From: Leucoraja ocellata
Lineage: Eukaryota
Length of the DNA: 64,000 nucleotides
Assembly: GCA_036785375.1 (NCBI GenBank)
Contig: JAWMAR010000062.1
Coordinates: 7,440,001 to 7,504,000 of the forward strand
Direction of reading: 5' to 3'
Shown: in pieces, positions 2,889-63,400 of the stretch
Position numbering within the stretch: position 1 is the first letter of the stretch
Layout: every line of letters begins with the position of its first letter
The notes under the pieces: generated by a model
The model's input: only the letters and a program-made list of their open reading frames with translations
What the model was told of the DNA's origin: nothing
The model's database searches: none
Made by a program: the position numbers and the translations under genes

Positions 2889-3030
2889 ACTAACTGTTTT
2901 ATGACCTTTGGTCACTTGGTTGATAAGACCACACAAAAATAAGTAATCCATACCAGAAGCAGTTTGTGTTGGTTCCCAATCTGTGCTCAGTTACCATGGC
3001 ATATCTATTATCAATTATTTTTAGAAATCA

Positions 3031-3115
3031 CTAGACTAAGTGGGGCCCATTGGGTCCTAGCATCACACGGGAGGGCTGGTCATCCAATGCAATATTCCAC
3101 CTCTCCACAATTCCA
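3031..3115 (-). mobile_element. Solo Helitron family A 3' end
   Basis: Minus strand ...GGACCCAATGGGCCCCACTTAGTCTAG|T; homologous to 16560-16623 and 30860-30948. Confidence 0.7.
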
Positions 3116-10609: not shown

Positions 10610-13513
10610 AAGAGAGGGTGGGTTTCTTAAATGTGTATATTTTAATGCTAGGAGCATTGTAAGAAAGGTGGATGAACTTAGTGCCTGGATTGACACCTGG
10701 AAGTATGATGTTGTGGCGATCAATGAAACATGGTTGCAAGAGGGCTGTGATTGGAAACTAAATATTCCAGGATTTTGTTGCTTCAGGTGTGATAGAATTG
10801 GAGGGGCAAGAGGTGGAGGTGTTGTATTGCTTATCAGGGAAGATATTACAGCAGTGCTTTGGCAGGATAGATTAGAGGGCTCGTCTAGGGCGGCTATTTG
10901 GGTGGAACTGAGAAATGGGAAAGGGATAGCAACACATAGGGGTGTATTATAGACCACCAAATGGGGAGCGAGAATTGGAAGAGCAAATAGGTAAGGAGAT
11001 TGCCGATATTAGTAGTAAGCACAAGGTAGTGATTGGGGGAGATTTCAATTTTCCACACATAGACTGGGAAACACATTCTGTAAATGGGCTGGATGGGTTG
11101 GAGTTTATAAAATGTGTGCAGGATAGTTTTCTGCAGCAATACATAGAAGTACCTACTAGAGAAGGGGCGGTGCTGGACCTCCTGTTAGGAAATGGGATGG
11201 GTCAGGTGGCAGAGGTATGCATTGGGGAACAGTTCGGGACCAGTGATCATAATACCATTAGTTTCAATTTAATTATGGAGAGGGTCAGAACTGGACCTAG
11301 GGTTGAGATTTTTGATTGGAGAAAGGCTAACTTTGAGGAGATGAGAAATGATTTAAAAGGAGTAAATTGGGAGAGTTTGTTTTATGGGAAAGATGTAGAA
11401 GAGAAATGGTGGACATTTAAAGGTGAAATTTTAAGAGTACAGAATCTTTATGTCCCTGTTCGGTTGAAAGGAAATAGTAAAAATTGGAAAGAGCCATGGT
11501 TTTCAAGGGAAATTGGACACTTGGTTCGGAAAAAGAGAGAGACCTTCAATAATTATAGGCAGCATGGAGTAAATGAGGTGCTTGAGGAGTATAAAGAATG
11601 TAAAAAGAATCTTAAGAAATAAATTAGAAAAGCTAAAAGATGATATGAGGTCGCTTTGGCAAGTAAGGTGAAAGTAAATCCAAAGGGTTTCTACAGATAT
11701 ATTAATAACAAAAGGATAACGAGGGTTAAAATTGGTCCATTAGAGAGTCAGAGTGGACAGCTATCTGCAGAGCCAAAAGAGATGGGGGAGATATTGAACA
11801 ATTTATTTTCTTCGGTGTTCTCCAAGGAGAATGATATTGAATTATGTGAGGTAAGGGAAACAAGTAGTGTAGCTATGGAAACTATGAGATTCAAAGAAGA
11901 GGAAGTACTGACACTTTTGAGAAATATAAAAGTGGATAAGTCTCCAGGTCCGGACAGGATATTCCCTAGGACATTGAGGGAAGTTAGTGTAGAAATAGCA
12001 GGGGCTATGACAGAAATATTTCAAATGCCATTAGAAACAGGAATAGTACCGGAGGATTGGCGTACTGCGCATGTTGTTCCATTGTTTAAAAGTGGTCTAA
12101 GAGTAAACCTAGCAATTATAGACCTGTTAGTTTGACGTCAGTGGTGGGCAAATTAATGGAAAGGATACTTATAGATAATATATATAAGCATCTGGATAAA
12201 CAGGGTCTGATTAGGAACAGTCAATATGGATTTGTGCCTGGAAGGTCATGTTTGACTAATCTTCTTGATTTTTTTGAAGAGGTTACTCGGGAAATTGATG
12301 AGGGTAAAGCAGTGGATGTTGTATATATGGACTTCAGTAAGACCTTTGACAAGGTTCCTCACGGAAGGTTGGTTCAGAAGGTTCAATTGTTGGGTATTAA
12401 TGGTGGAGTAGCAAGATGGATTCAACAGTGGCTGAATGGGAGATGCCAGAGAGTAATGGTGGATGGCTGTTTGTCAGGTTGGAGGTCAGTGACTAATGGG
12501 GTGCCACAGCGATCTGTGTTGGGTCCACTGTTGTTTGTCATGTACATAAATGATCTGGATGACGGTGTGGTAAATTGGATTAGTAAGTATGCAGATGATA
12601 CTAAGATAGGTGGGGTTGTGGATAATGAAGTAGATTTTCAAAGTCTACAGAGAGATTTATGCCAGTTGGAAGAGTGGGCTGAAAGATGGCAGATGGAGTT
12701 TAATGCTGATAAGTGTGAGGTGCTACATCTTGGCAGGACAAATCAAAATAGGGCGTACATGGTAAATGGTAGGGAATTGAAGAATGCAGGTGAACAGAGG
12801 GATCTGGGAATAACTGTGCACAGTTCCCTGAAAGTGGAATCTCGTGTAGATAGGGTGGTAAATAAAGCTTTTGGTGTGCTGGCCTTTATAAATCAGAGCA
12901 TTGAGTATAGAAGTTGGGATGTAATGTTAAAATTGTACAAGGCATTGGTGATGCCAATTCTGTAGTATGGGGTACAATTTTGGTCGCCTAATTATTGGAA
13001 GGATGTCAAAACAATAGAGAGAGTACAGAGGAGATTTACTAGAATGTTGCCTGGGTTTCAGCAACTAAGTTACAGAGATAGGTTGAACAAGTTAGGGCTT
13101 TATTCTTTGGAGCGCAGAAGGTTAAGAGGGGGCTTGATAGAGGTCTTTAAAATTATGAGAGGGATAGACAGAGTTGACGTGGATAAGCTTTTCCCACTGA
13201 GAGTAGGGAAGATTCAAACAAGGGGACATGACTTGAGAATGAAGGGACAGAAATTTAGGGGTAACATGAGGGGGAACTTCTTTACTCAGAGAGTGGTGGC
13301 TGTGTGGAATGAGCTTCCAGTGAAGGTGGTGGAGGCAGGTTTGTTTTTATCATTTAAAAATAAATTGGATAGTTATATGGACGGGAAAGGAATGGAGGGT
13401 TATGGCCTGACCGCAGATAGATGGGACTAGGGGAGAATACGTGTTCGGCATGGACTAGAAGGGTCGAGATGGCCTGTTTCCGTGCTGTAATTGTTATATG
13501 GTTATATGGTTAT
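10610..13513 (+). mobile_element. CR1 (HER1-like) LINE, ORF2 APE endonuclease + RT, inactivated
   Basis: FNARSI, ETWL, YRPP, GDFN, SDH, NYRP, QYGF, GVPQ and YADD motifs across ORFs 10668-13430; stops at 11620, 11641 and 12963 plus frameshifts; (gttatatg)n tail. Confidence 0.95.
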
Positions 13514-16558: not shown

Positions 16559-17211
16559 ATATTGCGTTGGGGGACCAGCCCTCCCGCGTGAAGCTGGGAC
16601 TCAATGGGTCCCACTTAGTCTATTCCTTACTAATCCCATTTCTTCTCTCACATCTCCATCCCCTCCTAAATTCTACTGCCATCTCCACCTTCAGTCATAT
16701 AAAGTGTAAACTCTGCATAGACCACATACAAGGACCAGATGAGACCTGGGTGGGTGGTTCTGGGAGGCAACAGTGCTAACCACTGTGCCATTGTGCTGGG
16801 GCAAGCTGCCACATTCACTCCAGATTCTGCATATATCCACTGTGCCATGTACATTTGACTCACACGCAGGCACAAAAATAAATGGGCAATATTGTGGGTT
16901 AGTGATGACCTAGCGACTGACCCACATACATACAAAATGCACACAATGGAAGTTATGTTGCCATGTGTGTGAAAGGCAGAGCCATGGTGTGCTGAAGTTG
17001 CCTGAACTGCTCGGAGGGAACAATGAAGTATTTGTTGAAGTGCATGTGAAGATTCTGTTTGTTATGCAGCACAGGCATCATACCAGGAAACTATTTGGCA
17101 TCAGCTAGACACATGCAGCTCTGAAAAGAGGAGGAGGGGGTGAAATAGGAAGCAGGCAATCAAGGAAACCCCCTTTTGGTTTAAGTTGCCGGAGCAGAAG
17201 TCATCTGATTA

Positions 17212-19747: not shown

Positions 19748-20203
19748 AGGGCCTGTCCCACATGGCTGTCATTTGCGTTTCATTTACGCGTCATAGGTAA
19801 AATAGGTTGTCGCGTTGTGACGCACGGGTAGCATGTGGGTAGCGCGGGACGGGTGCATGGAGAGGCCTGGAGGAGTGTGGAGTTGCGCGCGGTACGGAAT
19901 CCTTGTGCGCCACCTGCGTGACTTATCGCATATGCATGCTGAAGCATTGGGTATGCATGGTGACGCATTGGCATCGCACGCTGCGTCCCAACGTCTCACG
20001 TGTATCACGTGGTGATGCATGATTACAACACCGTGCGTAACCATGTGTCGCCGCGCACCGCAGGGTATTCTAATGATATCACACACACCAGACTGCATGA
20101 TAACGCGTGATTTGCGTGCGACGTCATGCGTAATGATGCGTCGACCTATTTTACATATGACGCATAAATGAGACGCAAATGACGGCCAAGTGGGACAGGC
20201 CCT
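19748..20203. mobile_element. PIF/Harbinger-type MITE
   Basis: TIR AGGGCCTGTCCCAC...GTGGGACAGGCCCT, extended ~60 bp; TAA TSD at 19745-19747 and 20204-20206. Confidence 0.88.
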
Positions 20204-29882: not shown

Positions 29883-30948
29883 GAATTATGATGTTGGAGG
29901 CAAATTCTCAGATTTTCTTTTTTTTAATTTGACCGCCAAATCTCTCTATATTAAAATGGTCTTTTTTTTAAAAATCAACAGCAAAGCATCATCAAGAGGC
30001 CATGAGCAGCAGAACACAACAATAGCCACAACAAGAAAGAACTTAATAAATCTCAACTTTAACATTTAAATTGTTGTTATATTTTAAGAGTCATTCACAT
30101 TTTAAACTTTAATAAATCCTTTTTCCACTTGCCATGCCTGCATGTTCTTCATCACAATGGGAACCTAATAGGCAGGAATGGCTGCACTGTCGGAGAGCCA
30201 ATGGGGGGAGGTTGAGGGGAGATGGACTGAATGCATGGGAGGGAGGGGAATGGCAAGGAGCAGAGTGGAAGGTGAAGTGAGGAGGGGTGACTCAGTTTAT
30301 GCCATCACACCAGCCATGAGTGACTGCGCTGCCAGTCCACCAGCCATGAGTAAGTGAACTGCTAGCCCACCAGCTGTCAGTGACTGAAGTGCCAGCCCAC
30401 CAGCCATGACTCACTGAACTACAAGTCCACAAAACCATTCAGCCAACAATATCCATACTAGCCCTCTGGAAACCAGTCCCTTCAGCGCACAACACCCATA
30501 CTAGCATTCCAGAGATCCACGCAAGGATAGACTTTCCTCCTTCATTGCTGTGATCTGTAAAAAAAGATGAAAATGTCTAAAATGTCTAAAATTCCTCAGC
30601 TGCCAGCCTGCCAGGCCTGAGTTACTGAGCTGCCACCCTGCCAGGCATGAGTTACTGAGCTGCCAGGCCTGAGTGACTGTGCTGCCAGGCCTGAATGACT
30701 GAGCTGCCAGGCCTGAGTGACTGAGCTGCCAAGCCTGAGTGACTGAGCTGCCAGCCCAAGAATCCATTTGGCCCACAATGTCCATGCTAACCCTCTGGGA
30801 GCCAGTCCCTTTGGCCCACAGCACCCATACTAGCGCTCCAGAAAGTCCCCCACCCCCCACTGGCCAGCAATATTGGAATTGGTGGAGAGGTGGAATATTG
30901 CATTAGGGGACCAGCCCTCCCATGTGATGCCAGTCCCAATTAGTCTAG

Positions 30949-32000
30949 TAACTATTAAAAGTCTGATCTTGTATGTGGATTTGTTTTTCTGTTATTACAA
31001 AATCAGCTAAACTCTACGTGGTAACGATAAAATGTTTACATATTTCGGTAGACATTTTTTCCGTGGAGTCCAAAATCAACCTTATCTGAAAATTTCATGC
31101 TTTATTTCTCAAGATTACTGAAAATATTTAAAAATCCTTTTAAAATTCAAAACTTTGAATTAAAAAATGACTGCCTTTCGCTGATGACGTCACAATGGGT
31201 CTGCTCTGCATGCCGTCTTCCTCGTGCTGCGAGTGACGTCACCCCTCCTCAAAAGACGCAGAAAGAACGAGCAAGTCAGGCCCTGTACTCATCCCGGGTC
31301 GGCGCATGGTGGGGAGGTTGCTGCCACAGGCCGAGCCCGGCGACTGGAGCTGGAGCTGGAGCTAGAGCGGGTGAGTATTGCATTCGGGAACCAGCTCCCC
31401 CTGTGACATCATGCCCTCCCCCCACCCCTCAAACTCTATACTGCTCCCTCTCTTTCCCTCCTTCCCCTCAAACTCTACCCCCCTCTCTCTCTGCTCCCCC
31501 CGCTCCCCCCGCTCCCACTCTGCCACCCCCGCTCCTTCTCAGCCCCCCTCCCATTCCCTCTCTGCCCCCCCTCCCTCCCTCTCAGCCCCCCGCCCCCTCT
31601 GCTTCTGCCTCTGCCCTCAGCCTCTGCCCTCGGCCCTCTGCCCTCTGTCTCTGCCTCCGTCTCTGCCCTCTGTCTTTTCCCTCTGCTCTGCCCTCCCTCT
31701 GCCCCCGCCCTCCCTCTGCCCCACCCTCCCTCTGCTCCCACCCTCTTTCTGCCCCTGCCCTCTCTTCCTCTCCCTCTCTAGCTGTGCCTGTGAGTTGGGG
31801 GCTATGCGTGAGTGGATGGGGTAAATGGAGCAAATTAATAATATTAATGTAATATGAAGGTGGCATGTTTTTAGTGTGTGTGTGTGTGGGGTGGTTAGTG
31901 CGTGTGTGACGCCACAGGCAGCCCACCCCCACCCCCCTCCCCCTCCCCCCCACAACCGTGCATTGTGGGGACAGGACCTAACGGGTCACACTTGGTCTAG
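30949..32000 (+). mobile_element. Non-autonomous Helitron-like element, family B
   Basis: 5' ...attaaaagtctgatcttg directly after the family A CTAG; 3' GGACCTAACGGGTCACACTTGGTCTAG|T at 32000; two TGACGTCA sites. Confidence 0.75.
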
Positions 32001-32169
32001 TTTTATCTAAATTTGTGCCAAGTTTTAGGTAGATACCAGACATGGGTCACGAAAGTTAAATTCTAGATGCTTTTTCGATGCTCGGCCCGCAGTGCCAAGG
32101 AACTTCTGTGAAAACAAACTTACCATTGCAATATAGAAAGCAGACTGGTTCACGGTATAAGCACTTAAA

Positions 32170-34539: not shown

Positions 34540-34717
34540 TGGAGACAAGGAATTCCAGATGCTGGTTTCCCAAGGAAAGATTAAAAAAAAACTGGACTAG
34601 CTCAATGGGTCAGGCAACATCCCTGGATAGTTTCGATAGTGATGTTTCGAGTCGAGACCCTTCATCTGAAGAAAAATCCTGACACAAAATGGTACCTATC
34701 CATATTTTCTGTGGATG
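34540..34717. mobile_element. Palindromic Penelope-type terminal element
   Basis: gtgatgtttcgagtcgagacccttc followed by ctgaagaa...cctatccat. Confidence 0.55.
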
Positions 34718-35545
34718 CATTTTGGGTTAGGATCACCAGCTTCCTGACAGACAGGAAGCAGCATGTGAAGCTGGGAAAGCATGTCTTGGACCCGCAAACA
34801 CTCAGCATAGGAGCATCGCAAGGCTGCGTACTCTCCCCTCTCCTCTACTCTCTCTACACCAATGACTGCATCTCCACTGACTCCTCTGTCAAGCTTCTCA
34901 AGTTTGTAGACTATACAACCCTGATTGGACTGATCCAGGGTGTGGAAGAATCTGCCCAAAGACGGGAAGTGGCACAGCTGGCAGCCTGGTGCCATGGCAA
35001 CAACCTGGAGCTCAATGTTCTTAAGTCAGTGGAATTGATTGTAGACTTTAGGAGAGCTCCCCCTTCCCTCACCCGACTCACCATCAACAACCACAGTCAC
35101 ATCTGTGGAGTCTTTTAAGTTCCTGGGAACCATCATCTCCAAGGAGCTTAAGTGGGGGGCTGCCATCGACTATACAGTCAAAAAGGCACAACAGAGGATG
35201 TACTTCCTGCGGCAGCTGAGGAAGCACAATCTGCCACAGGCAATGATGGTCCAATTCTATACCAGCAACGTAGAGTCTGTCCTCACCTTCTCCATCATGG
35301 TCTGGTTTGGCTCAGCCACCAAGCACGACATCTGGAGGCTGCAGCAAATCGTCCGACCAGCTTAGAAGGTTATTGGCTGCAACCTTCCCTCCATTGATGA
35401 ACTGTACACTGCAAGGGCCAGGAAACAAGCGGGTAAGATCATTTCTGACCCCTCTCATCCTGGCCACAAACTCATTGAATCATTTCCCTCTGGAAGGCGG
35501 CCCTGGACTGTAAAAGCTGGCACAGCCAGACATAAAAACAGCAGA
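34718..35545 (+). mobile_element. Rex1/Babar LINE RT fragment (pseudogene)
   Basis: ITSFLTDRKQHVKLG...QGCVLSPLLYSLYTNDC...KFVDYTTLIGLI...FKFLGTII...KKAQQRMYFLRQL; frameshift at ~35095 and a stop. Confidence 0.92.
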
Positions 35546-35569: not shown

Positions 35570-37050
35570 CATTGAAAATAAACGAGATGGTCTCACTGAT
35601 GATGTCACAATGGATCTGACTGCCTGCCTCTGCTCACGCTGCGAGTGACGTCACCCCTGTTCTGTCTTCTGTACTTCTTGGCTTCTTAACTTTCACTTCT
35701 TTAAATTTGTCACTTAGTGGTTTTAAACTGCTGCTCAGGTCATGCTGTGCGTTCTGCTGGGCTCCTTGAAGTTCTAGAACATGGCGTCGGCGGTCGTTAT
35801 CACTGCGCTGGCGTGGGGCAGCCAAGTGGGAAGGTGGCCGTGGCAGCCATTACTCCCTCTGGGAGAGGCCGTCTATGGAGACCTGCGATTCCTCTGTCGA
35901 TTGCAGGGACTCGGGGAATCGTGATGCCTTTTCCTCGCTGGTGATCCCAATTCCACCTGGCTATCCCTGGCCATCACGGGTGACGACCTCGCTCCGTCTC
36001 CCCTGTCTGATCATCTGTCATGCGGGTGGGTGTGCTTCCCCCCGCGGAAGCCATGATCGGCTGGCCCTCCACTGCTTTTGATCGCCCTCAGATCGCACCC
36101 GCCCGTGGCCTCCCTCGAGTCTCCGCCATCTGCTCAACGTGGGCCCAGAAGCCTGCTCACCCACAGCCTGCTCAACCACCTGGCTCCCCTCCTCCTCTCT
36201 CCCCTCCTCCTCTCTCCCCCCTCTCTCCCCCCCCTCTCTCCACCACATCCTATCTCCCCCTCCTCTCTCCCCCTCCTCCTCTCCCCCTTCTTCCTCTCCC
36301 CTCATCCTCTCCCCCTCCCCTCTCCTCCCCCTCCTCTCTCCCCCCCTCCTCTCTCCCCCCTCTCTCCCCCCCCTCTCTCCACCACATCCTATCTCCCCCT
36401 CCTCTCTCCCTTCAACCCCCCTCTCCCCCTCTCTCACCCCCTGCCCCCTCTCTCACCCCTCCTCTCTCTCCTCCTCCCTCTCTCACCCCTTCCCCCCTTC
36501 AGCTCGGCCCGGGCCCCCCCCCTCACCCCCTCTCTCTCTCCCCCACTCTCTCTCCCCCTGCTATCTCTCCCCCTTTCTCTCTCTCCCCGCTCTCTCTCTT
36601 CCCCCGCTCTCTCTCCCCTGCTATCTCTCCCCCTTTCTCTCTCTCCCTGCTCTTTCTCCCCCTCCCCCCTCTCTTCCCCCCCTCTCCCCCTCTCTTCAAC
36701 CCCCCACTCCCTCCACTCCCCGCTCTCTCTGTCTCTGCCCTCTCTCTCTTTGCCTCTCTGTCTCTGCCCCTCTCTGTCTGTCTCTGCCCCCTCTCTCTCT
36801 GCCCTCGCTCTACACCCCCTCCCCCTCCCTCTCTAGATGCGCCTGTGAGTTGGGGAGTGGATTGGGCGGGGATGAGGTAAAAGGAGTGAATGAATAATAT
36901 TAATATAATATCAAGGGGTTGGTTAGTGTGTGTGGGGGGGCGGGGGAGGTGGGGGTGGGGGGCAGTATTTAGTATGTGCGTGACACCACAAGCCCCCCCA
37001 TCGCAACTGCGCGTCGAGGGGAAGGACCCAATGGGCCCCACTTGGTCCAG
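35570..37050 (+). mobile_element. Helitron family B copy with a different captured segment
   Basis: Shares ctgatgatgtcacaatgg...gcgagtgacgtcacccct with 31180-31245; 3' GGACCCAATGGGCCCCACTTGGTCCAG|T. Confidence 0.72.
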
Positions 37051-38749
37051 TGACCAATAAAGGTATGAATCATTTCTGGAACACACTGTGGACACGAGCC
37101 AGAATATCTGGTGATTTATAGAAATTCTCAAGTCCTATGTGCAACTGAACTCAAGTCTATCTGCCAATCTGTTCATTCACATCCATGCATTTGACATCAA
37201 GGGCCATAATGACAATCAATGGGACAGGGCCCAGCTTATTCAACTGATCTTATGAAGGGTTTCCTGTTAAAAGCTTCTGTTTTGCAGATAAAGCAGATAA
37301 GGCCCTTATCATCTGGCCATGTGGAAATAAAAAGCAATAAAAATTGACACTCCTGCATGCCAAATACAGAAGAGCAAACTAAAGGACTTTGAAATAGAGA
37401 TGTATCATTCAACCAGGTAGGACAGCATCTGTATAGAGGAAAAACTGAATCAACTTTTTAAGACAAAGATCGTTCATCAGTACTGATAGAAAATAACATG
37501 AACATTTAGCAGAAAAGTATCGTACAGTGTATGTGCATTCAGCAACCGAGTGAAAGGCCTTTGGTGCTTCCCACACGAATATAAACCTGTCATTAGGGTT
37601 TCAGAAGTAGCAGAAGATCGAAATAAAAAGAAAACATAAAATACTGGAGTAACTCAGCGGGTCTGGCAGCATCTATGGGGAACATGAACAAATTACGTTT
37701 TGGGTCATGACCTTCTGAGTTCTCACAGTGACGTGCTTAGTTTAGAAAACAAATATAGCATAGAGCAACTGAGATTAGAATGCTGGTGAAGGACAAGAAA
37801 TGGTTCTGTCCATATCTATTGCATAGAGATGATACCAGTTTTGCCCTGCTAATTGTAAGAACATTTGACTTTTGTGGTACTGAAATCATGCTTGTGGAAT
37901 GCTGCTCGGTGAAATTACTGTTTTAGGAACCATAGATTAGGCTGGTAAAGGATCCAACCTGAAACATTGTCTGTCTACTTAATTCCGCATAGGCAGCCTA
38001 ACTTGCTAAGTGGTTGATCCGTTTGGTTTTCTGCATTCAAATAAACGTCCCATATATATTAAATGCAGGAAAACGAAAGATCAATCTGAAGGACATGGGT
38101 CAAACGCACGCAGATGGGACTAGCTTAGATGTACTTTTTAGTCAGCATGAACTTGTGGGCTGAGGGTTGGGCAGAAGCGCCTATTCCTGTCCTGTACGAC
38201 TATGATTATGTATTTAATACTTCAGTAAAGGATCAACACCTTCATGAAAGATCAGTATAGCACGTAGTTGCCTCTGAATTGTCAGCTTGATCACAGTAGT
38301 GATGTTGACATCCTGTTGGAAGATCATATGAAAACAGTAACAAAAAGCAATACAATTTATATATCAAGCTGCAGCAGTGTTTGTGAAATAATTCAACTGG
38401 ACATTTTGAGGAATACATCTTTAATTCACTTTTATTCCGACTGTCTCATTGCAACATAAAAAAAACAGCAAACGTGACAAAATATGTAAAGCAAAAACTT
38501 CAATAAGAATTTTCTGTAAAAACAGAATCTACAAACAAGAAAAAATATTGGGTTTTCAAAGGGCTCCTGCTATTAACCAATAGTGGACTAAGGAAGTCCA
38601 AAACTAAGTCCTAAACTTAGGTAGTGGCAATGGCTTTCAGCAGTTTTTAATTTCCGTAGTGGGTAATGTTAAACATACCTTAACCCTCTCAACATTCAAC
38701 CTGACTCTTGGAGCCACTAAAGAACACAATTGCTTCACAGAGTGCATTT

Positions 38750-38846: not shown

Positions 38847-39656
38847 TTATTTTTTATCACTTTGCAAATAAATCATGTTTTCATGTTTATCACTTTGGAA
38901 TAAACCTTGACATATCCCAGTTAGTCTTTACCTTCCAAACTTATTGGTGTTTGTTGAACTATTCATAAATGTCTAAGCTACAGCGCAAGAAAGAGCTGCT
39001 TCTGCCAACATAGTTCTGAGGAGATACGTGCTAATAAAAATAATATAGAACAATTTCAAGCCTAACTATTTTTTAAGATGCTAGCTTCTATCTACATCTA
39101 TATATACATAACTAAAACTCTGATCTTGTGCTCTACCGATTTGCGAGGTTTTTCTATTTGTGCAAAAACTGTTTGCGATAGTGCTATGATATTTTGCCAG
39201 GTTAGTTAGCATTCACATGTGCTGTGAGTGCAACAAGTTTCATTCCAATCGGTGGTGTATTGTAAAAGGTATCGATGTTTAAAAATCTTAATAACCACGC
39301 TGCGCAGATTTCTTCGGTAAGCGCCATTCAATTGGTCTATTTTCCTGTCAGTCAATGCCACGACCGGGATGGTGACGCCCCTTCCTGCCCCACCAGTGGC
39401 GGTCTGTCCCCCTTCACTCACAAATTACACTCTCCCCTCCTCACAGTAACTTGTCTATCGTCTCCCCCCGCCACCGACGATAGCCACGGGGGGCGTTCAG
39501 TGGAGGTTCAGTGGAGGTCCAGTGGAGGGCCTTGTCCCGTCTCTCTCTCCCTCATCACTCACCCCTCTCCCCCGCCCACCCTCTGCGGCCATGGCGGTCC
39601 CGTCTACCCATCTCCCCGGTTCCGGCTCCTCCGCCGCCGCCGTTGCGGTAACTCAC

Positions 39657-39736
39657 CCTCACGGCGAGTTGGAGGAGATCTTCTCCACCAGCTCATCAAA
39701 ACACATGGTGCCCACTGTGACGAACACCGACTCCAC
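39657..39736 (-). pseudogene. ALG13: Captured ALG13 exon 1 fragment (UDP-GlcNAc transferase N-terminus)
   Basis: (V)ESVFVTVGTMCFDELVEKISSN-S-AVR|GTGAGT versus recalled human MKCVFVTVGTTSFDDLIACVSAPDSLQ; 80 nt versus 27 codons; GTG in place of ATG and a 1-nt deletion. Confidence 0.82.
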
Positions 39737-39943
39737 CCCCCCCCCCCCCCCCCCCCGCTGCAGCAGTGAGCAGGCAGGCAAGGGCTGAGCGGCAGCCGCA
39801 GACGGGCGGGTAGGGCAGGATGGGCCAAGTGGCAGCAGCAGGTGGAAGGACAGGATGGGCCGAGCGGCGGCTGAGCCCGAGTGAGGGAGGGAGGGAGAGT
39901 TGGGTTGCAGGGTGCCCGAGCAGTTTGCGTGGAGTTTGAGTAA

Positions 39944-40075
39944 TGGGCCTGTCCCGCTTGGGCGATTTTTCAGTGGTCTGCTGGTGACTGTCAAGTTGCC
40001 GGCAGTCGTCTGAGAAACCGGGAACTGGAAAGGCGACTGTCAGAGTGGAATACATACACACACACACACTTGCAT
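39944..40075. mobile_element. PIF/Harbinger MITE left end
   Basis: TAA|TGGGCCTGTCCCGCTTGGGCGATTTTT. Confidence 0.7.
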
Positions 40076-40504
40076 TGTTTTTCTATTTGCGCAAAAATGG
40101 TACATGATAGTGCTATGATTTTTCGCCACCTTACCATTCTCCTGTGCTGCAAGTGCAATAAGTTTTGTTCCGATCGATTTGCGATCTATATATAATTCTG
40201 ATCTTGTTATCTTCCAGTTTGCGTTGTCTTTCTATTTGCACAAAAAATGGTACATGATAGCACCACAGTCACCGGCGGCTGTCAGTCACTGACGGCGCCC
40301 GCCTCACCCGGCGCCTGAGTCGGTCAGCAGCGGCCAGAGGGGATGGTCACAGTTGCCGGAGGGCACAGCCACAGCCACCGGAGGACGCAGCCCACAGCGA
40401 GGAGAATATCCCAACGTGAAAGGGTAAGATGAAGGAGCGGAGTGAGTACTGGTTTATCACGTCTGTCGATTTGGTTCATGATATACATGCATAAGGGAGC
40501 ATGC

Positions 40505-41270
40505 TCTGGAAGTGGCGGCGCTGCCATGCAGCTGCGGCTCGCGTGCAGTCCATCTGTCTTTTCCTTTCTTTGTGTTCTTTCGTCTTGTTGGACGTATGTT
40601 TTAGTTTATTTTTAGTTGTGTTTGTGTGGGGGGGTGGGGGAACTTGTTTTAGTGTCTTCCTTCATGAGGATGCAACCTTTTCTTTGTCGTATCCTCGTCT
40701 CCGTCTCCGTCTGCGCTGAGGCCTAGTCGCGGAGCTGGCGGCCTCCAAATGGGATCGACCTCGAGTCTCCGGAGGCAGAGCCAGGACTCACCATCGCGAA
40801 GCTGGCCGACTTCGGGGCTGTGGTGGCGCTGCGGTGGTGGCCTGACCTCGGAGCCTCGGAGGCTTTGGCCATAAGCCCAGTGGACGATAATATCGGGAGC
40901 TCGCAGGGAGCTCGCAGGTCCCAAGTTGGTGACCGATTCTCCGGAGCTCCCGCAACAACAGTTTCATCCACTGGACTGGAGGGTGGCAGCTTCGTCCGCC
41001 CCGGGCTGCGGCATTTGAACCGGCCCTTTCGCGGAGCTCGGATTCGGCCGCAGGACTTACCATCACCCGGCGGGGGGCCCAACATCGAAAGCCTGGATCG
41101 CCTCGACACAGAGTGAGAACAAGGAAGGAAGAGATAAAGACTTTAAGACTTTTGCCTTCCATCACAACGAGGAGGTTCCTGGTAGACTCACTGTGGTGGA
41201 TGTTAAACTGTGTTCATTGTGTGTCTGTTATTTTATTCTCTGTCATGACTGCAAGGTACACAATTTCATA
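40505..41270 (+). mobile_element. GC-rich non-autonomous retroelement, longest copy
   Basis: Starts GGAAGTGGCGGCG; its 3' part is shared with 33400-33525; no credible ORF. Confidence 0.6.
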
Positions 41271-41746
41271 AGCTTTATACTTTATAGCTTTATACTTTAT
41301 TTAAAAGTACCACAGTTTGTGGTGCATAATTTGCAGGAGAAATTGTTAGCATGGGGATGGATTTCCTGTTGCCTGCCGGGCAGCTTGGGCTGTCCATCAG
41401 CGGCTGCGCGTGATATTCATGTGCGATTAGGAGACCGGGGGAGTGCAAGGAGCATGATTAGACATTGCCAGCCATCTCTGTGGGCACTCTGCTGGCCAGC
41501 TGCAGGTAATTAACCCGGGTGTCCCATGTCCAATGGGATAGATTTGCCAGTATTGATGGGGTGGCGGGAGCCTTTTCCGAGCGACTGTGAGCGATCTAGT
41601 GGATGTGAATGGATATGCCAGTGCCCGCTATCTTGTGTGTTGTCCATTAGAACAATGATCAGCCATTTTTTAAATGTACTTCATTGGCTGCGGGTCATGT
41701 TCTGAGGTGATGAACAAATGCTTAATAAATGCATATTATTTTACAC

Positions 41747-42405
41747 AATAGACAATAGGTTCAGGAGTAGGCCATTCGGCCCTTCGAGCCAGCACCGTCA
41801 TTCAATGTGATCATGGCTGATCATCCACAATCAGTACCCCGTTCCTGCTTTCTCCCCATATCCCCCGACTCCGCTATCTTTAAGAGCCCTATCTAGCTCT
41901 CTCTTGAAAGTATGCAGAGAACCGGCTTCCACTGGTCTCCAGCACCCTCTGAGGCAGAGAATTCAACAGACTCATAATTCTGTGTGTGAAAAAGTGTTTC
42001 CTCATCTCCATTCTAAATGACTTACCCCTTATTCTTATACTATGGCCCCTGGTTCTGGACTCCCCCAACTTTGAGAATATATTTCCTGCCTCTAGCATGT
42101 CTATACAAGCCCAGCCGCTCCATTCTCTCAGCATATGACAGTCCCGCCATCCCGGGATTTAACCTTGTGAACCTACGCGGCACTCCCTCAATAGCAAGAA
42201 TGTCCTTCCTCAAATTTGGAGACCAAAACTGCACACAATACTCCAGGTGTGGTCTCACTGAGGCTTACCTGCATGCTTACTTTCATTGACTGATGAACAA
42301 AGACCCCCAGATCCTGTTGTACTTCCCCTTTTCCAAACTTGACACCATTTAGATAATAATCTGCTTTCCTGTTTTTGCTACAAAAGTGGATAACCTCACA
42401 TGTAT
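41747..42405 (-). mobile_element. CR1 LINE 3' fragment
   Basis: RPHLEYCVQFWSPNLRKDILAIEGV...; internal deletions. Confidence 0.92.
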
Positions 42406-43049
42406 TTGTTTTTGTACATAATGGCTAATCTGTAATTCACTTCTATTCCTTAATACAATAAATAATGTTCTTGATTATTAAACGTTGTCTGGTTTGGATC
42501 AAACAGCGATGGGAGTGATCTAAGAATGCTGCTGACCACAATTCCCCATATAAATTCCCAACAGACAAATCCCAACTCCATCTTGACTTGTCACAATTGG
42601 ATAATCTGCTCACCTTTCAAAACAAGCTACGGGAATTTCCATGGTCCCAACAAACCTCTGCTGTTATTCAGATAGATGATTGTTGGGAAATGGCACATGC
42701 AGTGGTTATTAACCATTGACAATAATTCACAGCATGGTTATTTTATGATCAAGATGTTAGCATTTAACATATTTCTTCTCGGGTTATGTTAAATATAAAA
42801 GAGAGCAAAGTTTTATCAAGAAATTAGTCCATCAGTATGTAGGTAATGCACTTGGTGAAAACAATTCAGTTGGTGAACCTCCAAAAAAGTCCAAGATGAA
42901 GAAGGTCTTTGATCTTTTGGAAGTGAGGAAGTCCGCTAGAGAAATTGAATATTTTAACATTTTATTTGATATCAAGTGCATCCCATTGTAAACTTTATCT
43001 AGAAATAAAAGCTGCAGATGCTGGTTAATACAGAAAAGGACCCTTCAGA

Positions 43050-43080
43050 CTGAAGAAGATTCTTGACCCGAAACGTCACC
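43050..43080 (+). ncRNA. Minimal type I hammerhead-like motif in a Penelope-type terminus (43003-43140)
   Basis: CTGAAGA (43050)...GAAA (43070) C GTC; core intact, stems I and II imperfect. Confidence 0.5.
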
Positions 43081-43654
43081 TATCCGTGTTCTCCAAATAT
43101 GCTGCCTGACCTGCTGAGTTACTTCAGCACTTTATGTCCTTCATTGTAATCTTTCTATCTTCATAAAGATATTTAGCTGCTATCTTCTCCAATATAGTTT
43201 TCTAAAAACTTGTATTGTCAAAAGAAATATATACTAAAAGATGAATATTTAACCGGTTGGTAAGAAGTCCCCTGTCTTGGCAATTTATTTAGGATGTTAT
43301 CCTTTTTAAAATATTAAGCTCTTCTCTGTGTCAAATAGTGGTGAAAGCAAAGATACACTGGGATCTATCCTTTGTATACAACGCAAACTAACACTCCCAA
43401 TGAGGTTATTAATGCTGAAGAAAACAAAACATCATTTTCCTCACTAGAATAAATTAGGTTACCCAGAAATAAGGAAATATTATATCCAGTGGTCTCAATA
43501 GTGTTCCAATGGACCTGCTGCATTTCCTAATTTTTTCCATTACACTTTATTGTCAACATGTTCTCATGATTTGCACCTTGGTGAGGTATACGGCCCACTG
43601 TATGACACACAGTTTATTGGAAATCATGATTTTTCCAATTCATGCCATTACTTA

Positions 43655-60461: not shown

Positions 60462-63400
60462 AGGGATGGATTGTATCTTAACAGGTGGGGGACCAGCATT
60501 CTGGCAGGCAGGTTTGCCACTGCTACACGGGTGGTTTTAAACTGAATAAGGGGGGTGTCGAATGGGATAGTTGAGGATGGAGTTAAAGGGAAAGGGTTTC
60601 TTAAATGTGTGAGCGTAGAGACAGAGGGGTGTAAAATGAAGGTAGAAGCAATAGGTAGCAAGGCGAAAAGTAAAAGTGGCAGGCAGACAAATCCAGGGCA
60701 AAAATCAAAAAGGGTCACTTTTCAACATAATTGTATAAGGGGTAAGAATGTTGTAAAAACAAGCCTGAAGGCTTTGTGTCTCAATGTAAGGAGCATTCGT
60801 AATAAGGTGGATGAGTTAAATGTGCAGATAGCTATTAATGACTATGATATAGTTGGGATCATGGAGACATGGCTCCAGGGTGACCAAAGCTGGGAGCTGA
60901 ACATCCAGGGATATTCAATATTCAGGAGGGATAGACAGAAAGGGAAAGGAGATGGGGTAGCGTTGCTGGTTAGATAGCAGATTAACGCAATAGAAAGGAA
61001 GGATATTAGCTTGGAGGATGTGGAATCGATATGGGTAGAGCTGCGAAACACTAAGGGGCAGACATCGCTAGTGGGAGATGTGTACAGGCCACCTAACAGT
61101 AGTAGTGGAGTTGAGGATGGCATCAAACAGGAAATTAGAAATGTGTGCAAAGGTAAAACAGTCGTAATGGGTGACTTCAATCTACATATAGATTGGGTGA
61201 ATCAAATTGGCAAGGGTGCTGAGGAAAAGGATTTCTTGGAATGTATGCGGGATAGTTTTCTAAACCAACATGTAGAGGAACCAACGAGAGAGCAGGCTAT
61301 TCTAGATTGGGTATTGCGTAATGAGAAAGGGTTAGTTAGCAGTCTTGTTGTGCGTGACCCCTTGGGCAAGAGTGACCATAATATGGTTGCGTTCTTCATT
61401 AGGATGGAGAGTGACATTGTTAATTCAGAAATAAGGGTCCTGAACTTAAAGAAAGGTAACTTTGAGGGTATGAGGCGTGAATTGGCCAAGATAGACTGGC
61501 AATTGATTCTTAATGGGTTGACGTTGGATATGCAATGGAAGGCATTTAAAGACTGCATGGATGAACTACAACAATTGTTCATCCTAGTTTGGCAAAAAAA
61601 TAAATCAGGGAAGGTAGTGCATCCGTGGATAACAAGGGAATTCAGGGATAGTATCAAAACAAAAGATGAAGCGTACAAATTAGCCAGAAAAAGCAGCCTA
61701 CCAGTGGACTGGGAGAAATTCAGAGTCCAGCAGAGGAGGACAAAGGGCTTAATTAGGAAAGGGAAAATAGATTATGAAAGAAAACTGCCAGGGAACATAA
61801 AAATTGACTGCAAAAGCTTTTATAGATATGTGAAGAGAAAAAGATTAGTTAAAACAAATGTAGGTCCCTTGCAGACAGAAACAGGTGAATTGATCATGGG
61901 GAACAAGGGCATGGCAGACTAATTGAATAACTACTTTGGTTCTGTCTTCACTAAGGAAGACATAAATAATCTGCCGGAAAAAGCAGGGGACCGGGGGTCA
62001 AATGAGATGGAGGAACTCAGTGAATTCCAGGTTAGCCGGGAAGTGGTGTTAGGTAAATTGAATGGATTAAAGGCCGATAAATCCCCAGATAGGCTGCATC
62101 CCAGAGTACTTAAGGAAGTATCCCCAGAAATAGTGGATGCATTAGTGATAATTTTTCAAAACTCTTTAGATTCTGGAGTAGTTCCTGAGGATTGGAGGGT
62201 AGCTAATGTAACCCCACGTTTTAAAATGAGAGAGAGAGAGAAAACGGGGAATTACAGACCAGTTAGTCTAACGTCGGTAGTGGGGAAACTGCTAGAAACA
62301 GTTATTAAAGATGGCATAGCAGCACATTTGGAAAGTGGTGAAATAATTGGACAAAGTCAGCATGGATTTACGAACGGTAAATCATGTCTGACGAATCTTA
62401 TAGAATTTTTCGAGGATGTAACTAGAAGAGAGGATAAGGGAGAACCATTGGATGTGTTATATCTGGACTTTCAGGAGGCTTTCGACAATGTCCCACATAA
62501 GAGATTAGTATACAAACTTAAAGCACACGGTATTGGGGGTTCAGAAATAATGTGGATAGAGAACTGGCTGGCAGACAGGAAGCAAAGAGTAGGAGTAAAC
62601 GGGTCCTTTTCAAAATGGCAGGCAGTGACTAGTGGGGTACCGCAAGGCTCAGTGCTGGGACCCCAGCTATTTACGATATATATTAATGATTTGGACGAGG
62701 GAATTGAATGCAACATCTCCAAGTTGGGGGGGGGGGGGGGGGGGGGCAGTGTTAGCTGTGTGGAGGATGCCAGGATGCTACAAGGTGACTTGGATAGGCT
62801 GGGTGAGTGGGCAAATCCATGGCACTTGCAGTATAATGTGGTAAATGTGAGGTTATCCACTTTGGTGGCAAAAACAGGAAAGTAGACTATTATCTGAATG
62901 GTGGCCGATTAGCAAAGGGGGAGATGCAAAGAGACCTGGGTGTCATGGTACACCAGTCATTAAAAATAGGCATGCAGGTGCAGCAGGCAGTGAAGAAGAC
63001 GAATGGTATGTTAGCATTCATAGCAAAATGATTTGAGTATAGGAGCAGGGAGGTTCTACTGCAGTTGTACAGGGTCTTGGTGAGACCACACCTGGAGTAT
63101 TGCGTACAGTTTTGGTCTCCTAATCTGAGGAAAGACATTCTTGCCATAGAGGGAGTGCAGAGAAGGTTCACCAGGATAATTCCTGGGATGTCAGGACTTT
63201 CATATGAAGAAAGACTGGATAGACTCGGCTTGTACTCCCTAGAATTTAGAAGATTGAGGGGGGATCTTATAGGAACTTACAAAATTCTTAAGGGGTTGGA
63301 CAGGCTAGATGCAGGAAGATTGTTCCCTATGTTGGGGAAGTCCAGAACAAGGGGTCACAGTTTAAGGATAAGGGGGAAATCTTTTAGGACTGAGATGAGG

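Follow-up and report, generated by a model that had tools for sequence, protein, structure and literature searches.

Within a 64,000-nt stretch of a Leucoraja ocellata contig (hereafter the window), the segment beginning at position 39,097 can be identified with near certainty as a copy of a Helitron family that carries the start of ALG13. In fuller terms, it is very probably a decayed, 3′-truncated copy of a non-autonomous family that holds the 5′ end of ALG13 in antisense at hundreds of places in the genome, the ALG13 block having likely been acquired in one event, in which template switching or gap repair exchanged it for the middle of a pre-existing element. The original prediction had proposed a DNA-level Helitron capture of a CpG-island first exon, and this is borne out by a 555-bp block that includes intron and upstream DNA and by the Helitron ends found on other copies. 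The process itself is already known from bats and frogs, and the skate ALG13 family is another case of it.

The window copy and the source gene

The minus-strand stretch 39736-39657 translates as an ALG13-like first exon with a GTGAGT splice donor directly after it, just as had been read from the letters. Its 25-residue frame has no match in Pfam or PDB; what identifies the exon as ALG13 is its DNA homology to the source locus. The Helitron-type 5′ module predicted beside it is likewise present, with an A at 39096 preceding TC at 39097, and the arm that follows matches that of a complete copy (L026) at 81% over 329 nt. Since this start lies on the plus strand and the exon on the minus strand, the ALG13 exon is antisense within the element. 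The features of the window copy and its breakdown are collected in the table.

Table. Features of the window copy and of the sequence that follows it
Feature	Position in window	Strand	Evidence
5′ arm of non-autonomous Helitron	39097..39400	+	TC start after A (39096/39097); common to sister family without ALG13
Captured start of ALG13 intron 1, with donor GTGAGT at 39656-39651	39401..39656	-	Aligns with C46:6228097-6228275, also with C1175
Captured ALG13 exon 1 coding part, decayed	39657..39736	-	68/81 nt identical to source exon, G000 C46:6228276-6228356
Captured ALG13 upstream DNA, 5′ UTR and likely promoter	39737..39943	-	Aligns with C46:6228357-6228566
Left part of TIR MITE, inserted at TAA 39941-39943	39944..40069	+	88% over 128 nt to element in L159/L167
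Internal piece of 5′ arm of second related Helitron	40070..40176	+	77-81% to 5′ arm
5′ start (TC after A) of further related Helitron, other family without ALG13	40185..40266	+	

The element had been thought to span 39097..39940. Its start stands, whereas 39940 is a break in this copy and not an element end: the copy is 3′-truncated by a MITE insertion and a deletion. We take the MITE to be Harbinger-like, judging by its TIR and TAA target; the same TIR type recurs at window 19749-20202. Both its right half and the Helitron 3′ arm are missing from the window copy, and after the deletion the sequence passes into the arm piece of the second Helitron. No family 3′ end or hairpin-CTRR is present in window 39944-43500. 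The further Helitron-type start downstream leads into a GC-rich repeated block of another family (window 40185-40560). In a separate observation, three different TIR MITEs occupy one and the same TAA/TTA site within the upstream DNA captured from ALG13, namely that of the window and those of L006 and L012 (three of the first 30 copies), which suggests that this site is a strong MITE target.

A PF04101 search of the skate's own genome located ALG13 exons 2 and 3 on contigs C46 and C1175 only, with none on the contig of the window. On C46, exon 1 occupies 6228276-6228356, exon 2 6224735-6224902 and exon 3 6222593-6222703. The source exon 1 has an ATG, a donor and 81 nt, which makes the 27 codons named in the original prediction; these encode residues 1-27 of the Leucoraja ALG13 entry P0001, to which exon 2 is 100% identical. 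The C46 and C1175 loci are 92-98% alike over 60 kb and are probably haplotypes. In complete copies, the captured block corresponds to C46:6228096-6228650 (555 bp) and comprises ~180 bp of intron 1, exon 1, and ~295 bp of upstream DNA, the upstream part reaching ~85 bp farther than in the window copy, up to 6228650. The source block has 66% GC and a CpG observed/expected ratio of 0.78, and qualifies as a CpG island by the usual limits. It lies internally and antisense in the element, not at the 3′ end of the element. On the source side, a GC-rich minisatellite in ALG13 intron 1 (L043, C46:6227550-6228090) extends right from the capture junction, and its length on C46 is not the same as on C1175.

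That the window contains the genuine ALG13 exon 1, altered by sequencing errors, is extremely improbable, as is a simple segmental duplication or retrocopy of that exon. What might favor such a reading is assembly redundancy: ~58 kb of the window (5621-64000) has an inverted second copy, 96-99% identical, at a distance of 1.28 Mb on its own contig (G000:C62:8737698-8795000), which may be a segmental duplication or an uncollapsed haplotype. However, the exon frameshift is common to both C62 copies, the gene itself resides on C46 and C1175, and homology to the source ends after 555 bp while taking in intron and upstream DNA, so this reading is refuted by the location of the gene and the limits of the block. 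Consistent with this, the 69 scanned frames of the 182 in the window yielded no ALG13 exon or other host domain, only LINE-type domains. LINE fragments with endonuclease and reverse transcriptase domains (and one PF09004 match) lie at window 10930-13430, 34585-35365 and 60546-62885. An L1-type retrocopy is excluded in particular because the copies keep intron 1 and upstream DNA and lack exon 2; the retained intron junction had already been read as speaking against retroposition.

A high-copy Helitron family, probably from a single capture

An 18-mer across the exon and donor occurs at 131 exact places in the assembly, and a 24-mer of the exon at 430 places with at most 2 mismatches (reversed controls 0 in both cases), the places being counted unchecked one by one and with the source gene included. 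Finding the true locus and counting copies had been proposed as a check; it gives a gene on C46/C1175 and copies in the hundreds. The 24-mer pattern is matched by 40 of 61 sampled copies, a share that suggests ~650 places for the family, and the collapse of 78 loci into 61 independent groups, with 17 near-identical loci merged, suggests ~500 distinct insertions. This sampling set aside L121, L135 and L142, which had no BLAST match to the block, and nine repeat fetches. With a 381-bp query, 790 first-look candidates were obtained, 40 scored and 30 fetched, and the ALG13 exon was present in all 30 of these top copies. Conversely, 27 of 30 loci chosen by the 5′ arm alone also match the ALG13 block. 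One 18-mer scored in the copies gave a fraction of 11/39. In a DNA run, the summed contig depth over exon 1 is far above that over exon 2 and consists mostly of family-type letters, a figure that may come from the assembly's own sample and is not taken as a copy number.

The family element measures ~1.5 kb, with 25 copies that have both ends ranging from 870 to 2259 bp. The shared sequence stops sharply at a hairpin followed by CTAG. This 3′ end was seen in 33 of 61 independent copies (25 with CTAG, 2 with CTAA and 6 with single-base variants; reversed control 0/61), the next base being T in 30 of the 33, and it is absent from the other 28 within the 1.1-1.9 kb of sequence covered for each. 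In the four copies that were folded, the hairpin has a 7-bp stem and a 3-nt loop (-7.6 kcal/mol) and stands 7 nt before CTAG. The 5′ arm is found in 49 of 61 (reversed control 0/61), and 35 of these 49 have ATC no more than 10 nt from the 5′ motif, against 12/49 in the control; nine of the 49 starts are blurred by TCTA repeats, and six directly abut a preceding Helitron end. One of the 25 complete copies provided an empty site (L056, the site being seen in three paralogous repeats), a clean one that shows insertion between A and T with no target duplication. The family thus has the traits of a Helitron1 non-autonomous family: a TC start, a CTRR end, a hairpin and A-T insertion without duplication. 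The pairing of a TC module with a hairpin-CTAG end, which was to be looked for on each copy, therefore holds at the level of the family, whereas the window copy has no 3′ end. As for the outcomes named beforehand as telling against a Helitron capture, ALG13 homology was found, the window copy is not the sole one and has no further ALG13 exons nearby, and the other copies do have Helitron flanks.

The Helitron lineage with this 3′ end is dense in the skate genome; the 64-kb window itself has ~5 more such ends (3030-3092, 16562-16622, 30898-30951, 31970-32001 and 37024-37051). Head-to-tail Helitron tandems were seen at L016, L020, L027, L058-L060, L081 and L141, and L058-L060 are three near-identical copies on C2, spaced 4.6-6 kb apart.

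Four exon positions differ from the source, and they do so in 44, 54, 50 and 49 of 56 copies, respectively. In addition, 45 of 49 of the 5′ arms of ALG13 copies fall in one weakly supported cluster of the arm tree. These shared exon differences and the arm cluster point to one origin, and we infer from these sequences a single capture event.

Route of capture and source of mobility

A sister family (20 loci fetched, L155-L174) has in common with the ALG13 family the first ~300 nt and the whole purine-rich 3′ arm with its terminus, whereas its middle differs. With the same two arms around different middles, the ALG13 block has likely taken the place of an older middle in a pre-existing element. 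The block begins within ~10 nt of the end of the shared 5′ arm. On the promoter side, its junction with the 3′ arm lies at an internal repeat unit, where source and parent have TTA in common. The sequence preceding that repeat unit is kept in the sister family, which so looks ancestral there, and we regard this family as the probable parent of the ALG13 family. In the arm tree, the ALG13 copies do not form one clade (three label changes; 0 of 200 bootstrap trees with one), so that the order of parent and daughter is not given by the tree. An 18-mer of the sister family, held by 5 of the 20 fetched copies, occurs at 86 exact places. The middle of the sister family (e.g., G000:C464:1438150-1438480) is a CpG-rich block with a GTGAGT-like site at its end, and may be another captured promoter or first exon; a search for the source of this middle gave no protein match among 84 candidates.

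We somewhat favor a replacement by template switch or gap repair over an end bypass involving two elements. Under the favored route, the ALG13 block would have entered once, with template switching or gap repair substituting it for the middle of the element; the 3-nt TTA microhomology lends weak support to a template switch. Alternatively, in what we hold to be a possible though rather unlikely course of events, a 3′-truncated Helitron in ALG13 intron 1 would have read through exon 1 and the promoter into a second, 5′-truncated Helitron upstream, both being later lost or never fixed. Read-through by Helitrons has been experimentally shown (PMC4778049), and end bypass is documented, in the account cited, for HelibatN539, with the bat source loci there usually being free of remnants too (26 cases; PMC4224331); hence, the absence of remnants at ALG13 is no proof against it. 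The intron-side junction, which is ambiguous by several bases, also adjoins AT in the source, and ~22 kb upstream of the source junction one Helitron 3′ end occurs in the same-strand orientation that such a bypass would require. That distant end, however, has a variant hairpin and may be there by chance, given ~5 such ends in the 64-kb window, even as it fits the bypass. Against the bypass, a single sister family is colinear with both arms, which are joined at internal positions, neither source junction has arm remnants, and at the promoter-side junction the host repeat that was cut runs on unbroken in the source. Further, no 5′ arm was found within 60 kb of either ALG13 locus.

As regards the source of mobility, the genome has 120 PF14214 matches, and ten RepHel loci were fetched. 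On C51, C635 and C274, all decayed, RepHel homology is followed by the family's 28-nt 3′ end, with C51 and C635 probably being one insertion; a further decayed locus, on C239, combines a related 5′ arm with a variant 3′ end. Among the ten loci there is no single intact RepHel element with both family ends. The older decayed RepHel loci form a group ~79% alike, and judging from their sequences this group is the likely partner: an older autonomous family that shares the 3′ end would have supplied, in trans, the RepHel protein that mobilized the ALG13 family. A young RepHel group (L093-L100, on C2974, C2153, C175 and C168) is 96-97% alike, has open frames of 1017-1851 residues and was possibly active recently. 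We rejected it as the partner, as the family ends were not found in the 20 kb covered per locus.

Decay, potential function and parallels in other lineages

The copies decay neutrally after an old burst. Among the 56 independent copies that remained after five deletion-damaged rows of 61 were removed, 323 exon changes were counted, 213 of them nonsynonymous, where neutrality predicts 216 ± 8, and the mean exon divergence from the column majority is 7.4%, or 5.3% outside CpG. We infer that copying of the family has now ended or become rare. In 40 copies not chosen by their donor motif, the ATG is kept in 28, GTGAGT in 25, and ATG, frame and GT together in 14. The GTG and the 1-nt deletion noted in the original prediction are both present in the window copy (the missing base lying near 39670 relative to the source exon), but both are decay and not family traits, the ATG being kept in most of these copies.

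The combination of parts nevertheless makes the family a potential portable promoter-ATG-donor cassette, at least as far as its sequence goes. One may ask whether it is a selected, working exon trap, in which the ALG13 promoter drives transcripts spliced into host exons. We deem this improbable, although the retention figures just given agree with it and the bat HelibatN3 is described as performing exon trapping (PMC4778049). Against it stand the lack of any deficit of nonsynonymous changes and the loss of both ATG and frame from the window copy. In addition, when an intact copy was read for 44 codons in a weak search for chimeric proteins, all six matches among 11 candidates were ordinary ALG13. 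A similarly weak protein search with representatives gave three matches, two of them to unrelated repeat proteins and one to an unnamed 38-residue ALG13-like start. Two contig sets that we guess to be RNA have cover over source exon 2 and none over exon 1, even of the real gene, and are thus silent on donor use; no RNA set is listed as containing the window stretch. A family-wide function is improbable, and most copies, that of the window included, are likely inert passengers.

The closest parallel is HelibatN3 of Myotis, which carries the NUBPL promoter, 5′ UTR, first exon and part of intron 1 at high copy, and which traps exons (PMC4224331; PMC4778049). Like the skate family, it is described as a non-autonomous element that amplified with the 5′ end of a housekeeping gene, including part of intron 1, and kept the splice donor. 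The two differ, as far as those accounts go, in copy number (~500 in the skate vs 1000 or more), in the captured codons (27 of ALG13 vs 6), and in orientation, with ALG13 being antisense and NUBPL marked '+' in its supplement row (PMC4224331); moreover, exon trapping is shown for HelibatN3 and would be a conjecture for the skate family. A reversed gene start is reported in HelibatN217.1, which carries that of TMBIM4 (PMC4224331); there, a near-identical 3′ end is described beside the parental gene, unlike the ALG13 junctions, which have none.

The Heli1Xen1 captures of Xenopus laevis, reported as skewed to gene 5′ ends (17/19; PMC12001565), resemble the skate case as a vertebrate Helitron1 that captures such ends, but are presented there as low-copy (19 fragments in 64 insertions, at most 17 copies), young and possibly active (PMC12001565). 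In Spodoptera, the Hel1 exemplars, discussed under a filler-DNA model, have shared arms, differing internal captured blocks and junction homologies of 2-13 bp (PMC6544945). The skate families share with them the common arms and differing internal blocks, whereas the skate block replaces the middle and is an identified gene start, in contrast to the Spodoptera blocks, which in that description add to the element. Our literature search found no report of Helitron capture of ALG13, or of such capture in Leucoraja, Amblyraja, sharks, skates or elasmobranchs, and ALG13 is absent from four supplement files of PMC4224331; the family may be catalogued in Repbase or Dfam. A review mainly describes LINEs and SINEs for the one genome of this lineage then sequenced (PMC5381603).

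High-copy capture of promoters and first exons is thus best known from vesper bats, with low-copy capture in Xenopus, and the skate, at ~500 copies, represents an independent lineage. With the source gene, both junctions and a candidate parent in hand, gap repair and end bypass can be tested against each other in related genomes. In practical terms, the copies can mislead the annotation of ALG13, the mapping of reads and the calling of methylation. We tentatively raise the possibility, which we hold to be on the unlikely side, that skate genomes contain hundreds of ALG13 CpG-island promoter-ATG-donor cassettes, about one-third of them intact, some of which give host genes new first exons. If true, this, together with the CpG-rich, donor-ended block of the sister family, would mean promoter shuffling on the scale of bats in cartilaginous fishes, and would offer a third vertebrate lineage for testing why Helitrons that capture gene 5′ ends amplify.
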